Shown here: one piece after another, positions 11,686-13,552 of the stretch
Layout: every line of letters begins with the position of its first letter
Position numbering within the stretch: position 1 is the first letter of the stretch
DNA from: an uncultured Bacilli bacterium
GTDB taxonomy: Bacteria > Bacillota_I > Bacilli_A > RF39 > UBA660
DNA: 64,000 nucleotides
Direction: 5' to 3'
Assembly: GCA_910586295.1 (NCBI GenBank)
Contig: CAJUGE010000018.1
Coordinates: forward strand, 10,717-74,716
Program-made: the position numbers and the translations under genes
The notes under the pieces: generated by a model
The model's input: the letters and a program-made list of their open reading frames with translations, nothing else
Told to the model about the DNA's origin: nothing
The model's database searches: none

Positions 11686-13458
11686 TTGGCGAGTGTCAAG
11701 GTTATAACCGCTAATCAATCAAGAATTAGTAAAATCACAAATGGCATCAAAAAAATAATTTTAAGGGTTTGTGCTTATTGTAGAGTAAGTACAGACAGTG
11801 AAGAACAACAAACCAGTTATAAATCTCAAAAAATTCATTATAAGAATCTTATTGAAGAACATGATGATTGGGAATTTGTAGATATTTATGCTGATGAAGG
11901 TCTATCTGGAACTAAAACTGCTAAAAGAACAGATTTCAATAGAATGATAGAGGATGCTTTAGCAGGAAAAATTGATATGATTATTGCTAAATCAATATCA
12001 AGATTTGCTAGAAATACTGTTGATACTTTAAATTATGTAAGACAATTAAGAGAAAAAAATGTAGATGTGTATTTTGAAAAAGAAAATATACATACTTTGC
12101 AAATGACAAGTGAAATGTTTTTAACATTGTATAGTGCTTTCGCTCAAGCAGAAAGTGAATCTATTTCTGAAAATGTTAAAGCAGGAGTTCGTATGAAAAT
12201 GAAAAGAGGCGAACTTGTTGGTCATTATGCTCCTTATGGTTTTATATATGATGAGGAAATAGAAAATCTAGTAGAAAATCCAAAAGAAGCATTTATCATT
12301 AGATACATTTTTGATAGATATAAAGAGGGTGTTGGAACTTCACGAATTGCAAAAGAATTGAATAATCAAAATATCCCTAGTCCAACAGGAAAAAAATGGT
12401 CTGATACAGTTATTTTTAGAATGATACGAAACGAAAAGTATGTTGGAGATTTGCTTACAGGAAAAACATATACAGATAATCCTATAAATTCAAAAAAGAA
12501 AAAGAATAAAGGCGAATTTGATATGTATTATACTGAAAATCATCATAAAGGTATTGTTGATAGAGAAACTTGGGATATTTGTCAAGAAATTGCAAATAAA
12601 AGGTCAGGAAAGTACACTGCTGATGGTAGACCAGAAAAATTTAGTCAAGTTTATCCATTTAGTAGTAAGATTATTTGTGGCTTATGTGGAGAGAACTATA
12701 TTAGAAGGTCTTGGAAAGGTCATAAAGATGGCGATCCTCGTAGAGTTGCTTGGGCTTGTAGAACTTATAATACTGACCATTTATCTTGCCAAAGTTATGG
12801 AAATGTTAAAGAATCTTATATTGAAGAATTATTTGTTAATATGTATTCTGTATTGTGTCAATATAATAAAGAGGTAATTGAGAAACTTTTAATCACAATA
12901 GAAGAAACTTTTAATAATGATGATTATTCTAAAGAACTTAAAAGTTTAGAAGCTGATATTAAAGCATATAGAGAACAACTTATGGAATTGTTAGATGTTA
13001 GACTTGCTAAAGTAATTGATAATGATGTATTTGAAGAAAAGAGTGCAAGAATAAATAAAAAAATCGAACTATTAGAACTAGAAGCAAAGAAAATTAGAGA
13101 TTACATATCACATAGAGATAAAGTTCAAGATAGGGTAGATAAATTTAAAACTATTTTTCAGAAAAATACTACATTAAAAGAATTTGATGCTGATGTATTT
13201 GAAAGTATTATTGATAAGATTATAATAGGTAGAAGGAATGAAGATGGGTCTATTGATCCATATGAAATTAGATTTGTTCTTAAAACTGGAGATGAATTAA
13301 CCGACACATTACCAATCAAAAAAATGCCTTCACAAACGAAAAATGAAAGAAGTGATACCAATGAGCGAATGGAAGAATTGCAGTCGCAGTTGGGTGCTTA
13401 TGCCCACAACGGGGAACACAGTAATCGCAAGTCCACGATCACTTATCGCAATACTTGA
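11686..13458 (+). CDS. Large serine recombinase (resolvase/invertase N-domain, recombinase domain, zinc ribbon, coiled coil)
   Basis: TTG start with AAAGGAG RBS; catalytic [11 protein letters not shown] motif, SISRFARN motif, Cys cluster CGLCGENY...C; 590 aa. Confidence 0.9.
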
Positions 13459-13552
13459 ACAATACTATCAAAGTGATGGAAGTGTAATAATTCCTGAAGT
13501 TTTACGACCTTATATGGGTGGTAAAGAAATTATAAAACCAAACCAAAAATAA
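13403..13552 (+). pseudogene. serS: Displaced 3' fragment of seryl-tRNA synthetase (serS): ...[36 protein letters not shown]
   Basis: Only the C-terminal ~45 residues of SerRS are present (conserved IAILENYQ...[15 protein letters not shown] block). They lie in a different frame immediately overlapping the recombinase 3' end, typical of an attachment-site remnant. Confidence 0.6.

Follow-up and report, generated by a model that had tools for sequence, protein, structure and literature searches.

Probable insertion of a serine-recombinase conjugative element into motif 3 of serS, with complete serS genes carried by related elements

Mobile elements usually spare essential genes: they enter gene ends or tRNA genes, and the displaced part is rebuilt. 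A serine recombinase cannot duplicate its target. In the 64 kb of DNA from an uncultured Bacilli bacterium that was analysed here as a whole (the window), a gene for a large serine recombinase (LSR) runs directly into the last codons of serS, the gene of seryl-tRNA synthetase (SerRS). This raises the question of what has happened to the rest of an essential gene and how the host could do without it. The original prediction was that the element occupies an attachment site at the 3' end of serS and supplies a new 3' end, leaving an intact serS at the far junction. The results point to a different arrangement. We consider it likely, with a probability of about 0.8, that positions 13387-13444 are the attR of an integrative conjugative element (ICE) that the LSR inserted in motif 3 of serS, and that the element family compensates with a complete serS inside its left junction.

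Recombinase gene, serS fragment and crossover site

The LSR possesses a resolvase catalytic domain with a nucleophilic serine (PF00239, Resolvase, residues 29-176, E=6.5e-35; the N-terminus reads RVSTDSEEQ in the nucleophile region), and its C-terminal extension contains a Recombinase domain (PF07508, residues 199-306, 1.2e-24) and a zinc ribbon (PF13408, Zn_ribbon_recom, residues 324-387, 3.9e-11). The closest annotated relatives, at 41-43% identity, belong to elements of the Tn1806/ICESp1108 type from streptococci and Erysipelothrix. The best NCBIfam match is CcrB, with 142.9 bits against a cutoff of 900, followed by CcrC (115.5 against 900), a weak similarity to XisF (97 against 375) and CcrA (81 against 700). 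Because these scores are far under the curated cutoffs, the protein is not a Ccr or XisF equivalog. A scan of viral contigs with the LSR returned relatives at 46% identity or lower, none of them adjoining serS. An ORF of 55 aa (11437-11604) is located directly 5' of the LSR gene. It has no family match in the precomputed Pfam table and is, by its position, a candidate directionality factor.

Next to the recombinase gene, the frame 13403-13552 translates to a peptide of 50 residues in which the SerRS matches begin after the first residues. Among PDB chains, phmmer aligned it to SerRS alone, with 6x94_A as the top match (E=9.7e-12; query residues 24-67 against SerRS residues 377-420 of 426), and tblastn gave 68% identity over 47 aa to the native SerRS of locus L013 (E=1e-14). 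The fragment is the C-terminal block past SerRS motif 3 and its reading frame is intact, in keeping with its earlier identification as the displaced C-terminus of the synthetase. Pfam gave no match for the 69-aa ORF because the piece is too short. The predicted absence of a serS body from the window was confirmed by tblastn with the L013 SerRS, which found no other SerRS-like stretch in the whole 64 kb. The frame had been assigned to SerRS over its full length. This is correct from 13415 onwards; the first five codons, MPTTG (13403-13414 and the G of the next codon), are element DNA and not SerRS. The GC content is locally high, as had been noted, with 0.405 in 13300-13499 against about 0.21-0.31 on both sides beyond 13200-13600, and means of 0.264 and 0.277 for the element and host parts of the window. 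Scans of the window for tRNAs and Rfam families found nothing.

The LSR reading frame crosses the junction. Its last 14 codons (13414-13455) and the stop are host DNA, and the TGA at 13456-13458 falls within the SerRS fragment in another frame, so that the overlap described in the original prediction is real. A recombinase with three recognizable domains that abuts the SerRS fragment and runs across the junction also upholds the more general claim that a serine-recombinase element is inserted in serS.

The position of the crossover can be narrowed from both sides. All 80 native serS genes obtained from GTDB genomes read ...(H/A)TLNNTV(V/I)A(S/P)PR..., and the window matches them codon by codon from AAC ACA GTA at 13415 on. 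To the left of 13415 it is unrelated to native serS, with ACG GGG in place of TTA AAT, and host DNA therefore cannot reach further left. Two contigs from another host (L201 and L202) are 100% identical to the window over 13288/13296-13416 and diverge from 13417 on, where both the SerRS tail and the downstream gene differ from those of the window; element DNA therefore ends at or before 13416. The dinucleotide AA at 13415-13416 is the only one found alike at attR (three hosts), at attL (two hosts) and in native attB. From these limits we infer that it is the crossover core, located in the second Asn codon of motif-3 TLNNTV and within the range of 13400-13450 that had been proposed.

The same break is found in protein databases. 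All 21 junction ORFs that were collected (46-67 aa) change to SerRS at NTV, with three classes of element-side sequence, PTTG, IATT[R/T] and STTS. One of them, P0038 on contigs L201 and L202, has the element-side peptide of the window joined to a different SerRS tail. Scanning GTDB genome contigs with the fragment returned the 80 intact native serS genes and zero junctions. A set of SerRS ORFs of 59-63 aa starting with 'MKTEKGN...' was considered as a second kind of junction and rejected, since frameshifted assemblies or gaps in scaffolds account for them (L084, L196). Locus L084 (GCA_015473165.1, BNJT01000986.1) is a long contig of an error-rich assembly in which nearly all genes, including serS, are split into ORFs of 30-90 aa, and it has contributed many short, spurious 'SerRS' entries to the protein collection.

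The sequences flanking the AA resemble attachment site arms (Table 1). The reverse complement of the P arm matches the 28 nt after the AA at the attL of two relatives, L188 and L196, at 19 of 28 positions and in register; the background mean is 6.3 matches and a score of 19 was reached at 3 of 98,487 positions. This comparison pairs arms of different, though related, elements. The P' arm of the relatives reads approximately TCCTGTAGTAG[GC]C[AT]TATGCAC, and the P-side sequence expected to precede it in attP is GGTGCTTATGCCCACAACGGGGAA. A P arm, AA and P' arm in this order would have the anatomy expected for the attP of a serine integrase, attP itself being a reconstruction. For the B' arm a length of about 28 nt was assumed by analogy with the P arm. 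A related P-like arm also occurs in L085. The junctions compared contain no duplicated target: the right and left junctions combined rebuild the native ...AAT AA/C ACA GTA... with nothing duplicated or lost.

Table 1. Features of the right junction and of the adjoining element, in window coordinates
Feature	Position	Strand	Basis or content
LSR gene, 590 aa	11686-13458	+	PF00239, PF07508, PF13408
Displaced host serS 3' end	13415-13552	+	45 codons (NTVIASPRS...KPNQK) and stop; phmmer, native serS alignment, tblastn
Right-hand 13.4 kb of the ICE	1-13416	+	Goes on at least 24.3 kb left of the window; overlapping contigs
SNF2-type helicase protein gene, 2266 aa	2125-8925	+	Pfam SNF2-rel_dom, ResIII, Helicase_C
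Putative crossover dinucleotide AA	13415-13416	+	L201/L202 identity limit; native serS mismatch from 13414 leftwards
Probable attR	13387-13444	+	P arm, AA and B' arm
P arm of attR, element-side half-site, 28 nt, GC-rich, inside LSR coding sequence	13387-13414	+	Inverted match to attL arm of L188/L196
B' arm of attR, host-side half-site, serS motif-3 codons TVIASPRSL	13417-13444	+	Aligns with native serS (L013, L015, other loci)

Element content, hosts and left junctions of relatives

Its genes identify the element as an ICE of at least 37.7 kb that spans window positions -24,288 to 13,416, and the proposal that its other junction lies outside the window agrees with this extent. The leftward continuation was read from overlapping contigs: L003 matches window 1-10860, and L090 in turn matches L003, each at 99.99% identity. 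These contigs contain two genes of 146 aa, a type IV coupling protein (T4CP, PF02534), a relaxase (PF03432), an M23 peptidase, a VirB4-like ATPase (TraC-like/DUF87), a VirB6-like protein, SSB, a small resolvase, a sortase and an adhesin of 924 aa. Relaxase, coupling protein and VirB4-like ATPase are thus contiguous with the integration module, the gene set by which an ICE is recognized. In the variant L093, which shares 98.98% identity with L090, NUDIX, radical-SAM and LysR genes are present in addition. No phage or plasmid was matched when parts of the element were searched by megablast, and viral contigs contained no match to DNA patterns for either arm (P and P') or for the left region of the element.

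Contigs of three element variants end 140-255 nt upstream of the LysR gene of the element. Relatives hold different cargo at this place, and the stretch from attL to LysR is variable cargo among them. A match of 'GCCATATG' to P' made this break a candidate for the left end of the element, which was rejected: the rest of the arm matches P' poorly (6/21 by eye) and relatives run on leftwards past the break, with variable cargo. This break, 140-255 nt upstream of LysR, is seen in no fewer than nine independent assemblies, which represent two variants of the element: five contigs with L093 and four with L203, where it falls at the starts of L203-L206. A AAATTACAATTTATCGAG motif is present at the break in L093 (1-230) and in L205 (about 110-127), one contig having been inspected per variant, and this region may form the border of an exchangeable cassette of cargo.

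Clustering at 90% identity places the LSR in a group of 94 sequences. Among the 15 members listed (P0264-P0278) the sequence is common up to ...GAYAHNGE and is followed by 14 different tails of 1-16 residues. The tails are host serS DNA in the recombinase frame, with 14 residues in the window, EYRNCSTKNVNSLFRK in L201 and KYSYC in L085. One LSR with 14 host-encoded tails indicates that the element lineage is present in many serS alleles and hosts. The member P0272 ends in ...NGEA*, which does not resemble serS DNA and may be a case of attP or of a secondary site. In the junction ORFs, the SerRS tails correspond to types from uncultured Bacilli, Lachnospiraceae/Oscillospiraceae and other Clostridia, and the target site in serS is conserved across Bacilli-like and Clostridia hosts. 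In L085 a related LSR and SerRS fragment are found beside murT, gatD, murD and lepA.

To the right of the junction the DNA would be chromosomal. The contrast with L201 and L202 supports this more strongly than the weak synteny with native genome L026, in which a distant relative of the flanking ATPase gene of the window is also located 3' of serS. This ATPase (AAA_14/DUF4143), the first host gene past the junction, is present as two ORFs (13681-13950 and 14046-14882) because a run of T near 13940-13950 contains a frameshift, either a pseudogene lesion or a homopolymer sequencing error. Further right, the host encodes a LysR-type regulator (52054-52911) that shares 40% identity with the LysR of the L188 element, probably no more than the usual resemblance within the family. 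SerRS matches in three 'phage' records (H1-H3) were rejected because they are full host serS genes on unannotated contigs. Another 86 Ralstonia 'phage' records of 9.7-13 kb (H15-H30 and others) encode a SerRS C-terminus with 51% identity to the query; they may be prophages with host flank or another serS-adjacent integration.

The left junction was read in two related elements, L188 and L196, and the element of the window was read at attR. Locus L188 was found by scanning metagenome contigs with the LysR protein of the element, and L196, from another NCBI MAG, through the junction-like ORF P0012. The L188 element is collinear with that of the window at 53-96% amino-acid identity (LysR 58%, radical-SAM 85%, NUDIX 90%, adhesin 87%, sortase 82%, SSB 96%), and L196 agrees with L188 in its left part. 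In both, the host serS covers the TIGR00414 profile only to position 386-391 of 418: the ORF reads ...HTLNN and then continues with an unrelated tail of 25 aa, PVV[A/G][I/L]CTQ[V/I]GNWLKSLNFQAKSTLISA*. The truncated gene is followed by an inverted P'-type arm, by a complete element-borne serS about 150 nt on, and by a gene for a 254-aa HTH_36 protein, which is 88% identical between the two loci. The element-borne serS of L188 (1384-2670) covers TIGR00414 from 1 to 418 of 418 with 396.5 bits against a cutoff of 301.65; that of L196 is broken solely by a scaffold gap of 10 N.

The two element-borne copies are 92.8% identical to each other and the two truncated host copies 73%, with 71-77% between truncated and complete copies. 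Since the complete copies are more alike than the host copies, the complete serS travels with the element. The exact SerRS of the L188 element is present on 25 contigs from four sources. In a variant locus, L197, no serS was found in the roughly 6 kb of element DNA that the locus covers upstream of its LysR, and a tblastn search of plasmids with the element-borne SerRS gave distant or chromosomal serS genes only. The native serS of L015 has a T-box leader (8159-8338); upstream of the element-borne serS no T-box was found at gathering score in L188 (region 1165-1384) or L196. The element-borne serS retains an attB-like site, ..AAC/AA/CACAGTGATTGCAAGCCCACG.., close to the sites used (L188 2496-2577; L196 10003-10084), which could be a target for a second copy of the element and lead to tandem arrays.

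Homology and the essentiality of the gene make it quite likely that the copy in the window also carries a serS next to its attL. The window is contained in the NCBI MAG contig CASZEA010000001.1 (GCA_949488705.1), where window position p corresponds to position 65,765 - p. The known part of the element ends before about 90,050-104,801 (14.7 kb) of that contig, and its attL should be found at about 90-99 kb.

Proposed mechanism and alternatives

In the mechanism that we favour, the LSR would integrate the ICE into serS by conservative exchange at the AA. Left of the junction the DNA would be that of the element, and from 13417 rightwards that of the host, opening with the 45 terminal codons of serS, now orphaned. 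With attP located inside the 3' end of its gene, the integrated LSR ends in a tail derived from host serS in another frame; in the excised circle the recombinase ORF would, as computed, cross attP into a longer tail. The insertion would take away the motif-3 arginine (R of SPR), which is invariant in class II synthetases, together with the C-terminal 10% or so of SerRS. From what is known of class II synthetases, a host SerRS(1-389) cut upstream of this arginine should be inactive, and we infer that the truncated SerRS is inactive and the element-borne SerRS active. A complete, separately started serS on the element, as seen in the two collinear relatives and presumed by homology for the window, would compensate for the loss, and this rescue gene would make the insertion tolerable. 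Since recombinase binding requires P' to be a mirror image of P, this arm cannot also encode motif 3, which offers a rationale for carrying the whole gene. No terminator-like site lies between the truncated host serS and the element-borne serS in L188, and the promoter of the host serS may therefore drive the rescue copy. If the element were excised precisely, the host gene would be intact again; for the copy in the window mobility is a prediction from sequence. The stretch targeted is invariant in an essential gene, so that attB would be available in many Firmicutes. We lean towards the still broader view that this is a natural 'insert-and-rescue' strategy of a widespread ICE lineage of gut Firmicutes, which would always enter the catalytic motif of serS and replace the host enzyme by its own SerRS allele, with read-through expression as a feature that may apply.

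The arrangement originally predicted has precedents, as SXT in prfC and ICESt3 in fda restore the ends of their target genes. In such a model the element would sit at the 3' end of serS with a surrogate 3' end, so that the left junction would be an intact chimeric serS and no separate gene would be needed; the left junction was indeed read in relatives and not in the copy of the window, which leaves room for the model there. Against it, both related left junctions leave the SerRS sequence at once and stop after 25 unrelated residues, P' has to mirror P (19/28) with no room for motif 3, and a complete second serS is present at the related left junctions. We regard this model as very improbable. 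The attachment site is accordingly not one of the 3'-end type known from tRNA genes and tyrosine integrases, the cut being upstream of the motif-3 arginine with about 10% of the protein removed, and the expected intact serS at the left is replaced in L188 and L196 by a truncated ORF and a separate complete gene, an arrangement that would extend to the copy in the window by homology.

It is less far-fetched, though still improbable, that the element in this genome has no serS and that the host survives by an independent second chromosomal serS, or that the assembly represents a subpopulation. The cargo adjoining attL varies among relatives and some Firmicutes have two serS genes, which would suit this explanation, but in both left junctions the element-borne serS is the first gene past attL, followed by the conserved HTH_36 gene, and the identical SerRS on contigs from four sources is hard to reconcile with it. 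The occurrence of the same LSR in many hosts also speaks for a solution that moves with the element. Within the window, the 50 kb of host DNA contain no second serS, an observation that bears neither for nor against this explanation. A decayed serS pseudogene that merely remained beside a recombinase gene, without site-specific insertion, would account for the adjacency, but the break is exact to the base at the same codon in different hosts with an identical element end, it recurs in the 21 database ORFs, the left junctions match the same codon and the frame of the fragment is intact. Such a remnant is hardly credible. Insertion in motif 3, with a complete serS supplied by the element, thus remains the preferred reading.

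Implications and relation to known systems

An LSR that targets the most strongly conserved segment of an essential synthetase, with relatives of the element bringing a whole replacement gene, would, if confirmed, explain the broad host range of such an element. It would also amount to horizontal replacement of an essential translation enzyme and to a natural counterpart of home-and-rescue designs. If the insert-and-rescue strategy holds, carriers would run on a horizontally transferred synthetase and partial loss of the element would be lethal, and recombination between pieces of element-borne and host serS could spread the allele of the element into chromosomes. The analysis also yields a mapped attB/attP pair for a new LSR, with attP as reconstructed. 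For annotation it carries a warning, since the recombinase C-terminus, 'SerRS' ORFs of 50-69 aa and truncated serS calls are junction products. In the literature found, whose coverage was incomplete, there was no report of serS as the target of an LSR or ICE, nor of an ICE carrying a full copy of the essential gene that it splits.

The organization is closest to the Firmicute elements Tn5397 (TndX), Tn4451 (TnpX) and streptococcal elements of the Tn1806/ICESp1108 type ('phi-SsuZKB4_rum'), which also have a single LSR gene at one end reading towards the junction, and a Gram-positive conjugation module comprising a relaxase, a T4CP, VirB4 and a large SNF2 protein; conservative exchange at a 2-bp core would be a further trait in common. 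The difference is in the target, which here is catalytic motif 3 of an essential aminoacyl-tRNA synthetase, and in the whole copy of the target gene carried by the relatives. Among elements of Bacillus and cyanobacteria, skin (SpoIVCA, sigK), SPbeta (SprA, spsM) and the XisF fdxN element are likewise LSR elements that split a coding sequence, which precise excision rebuilds. However, those genes are dispensable and used in development and no replacement is provided, whereas serS is always essential and its replacement travels along.

Conserved housekeeping genes serve as landing sites with retention of their function in SXT/R391 (prfC), ICESt1/3 (fda) and the tRNA/tmRNA islands. These rely on tyrosine recombinases, and a shared core duplicates or replaces the gene end only; here there is no duplication, the ORF is truncated and a full gene is supplied. 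The CcrA/B/C recombinases of SCCmec are LSRs that also act on a conserved housekeeping-gene site, the 3' end of rlmH, but leave rlmH intact, and the LSR described here scores 143 bits against the CcrB cutoff of 900. The nearest logic that we found is that of the engineered 'home-and-rescue' and 'cleave-and-rescue' drives (PMC7968924), which hit an essential gene and carry a rescue copy of it. Those drives are synthetic, nuclease-based and eukaryotic and use a recoded rescue gene, whereas the serS carried by the elements keeps an attB-like site and excision would restore the gene of the host.
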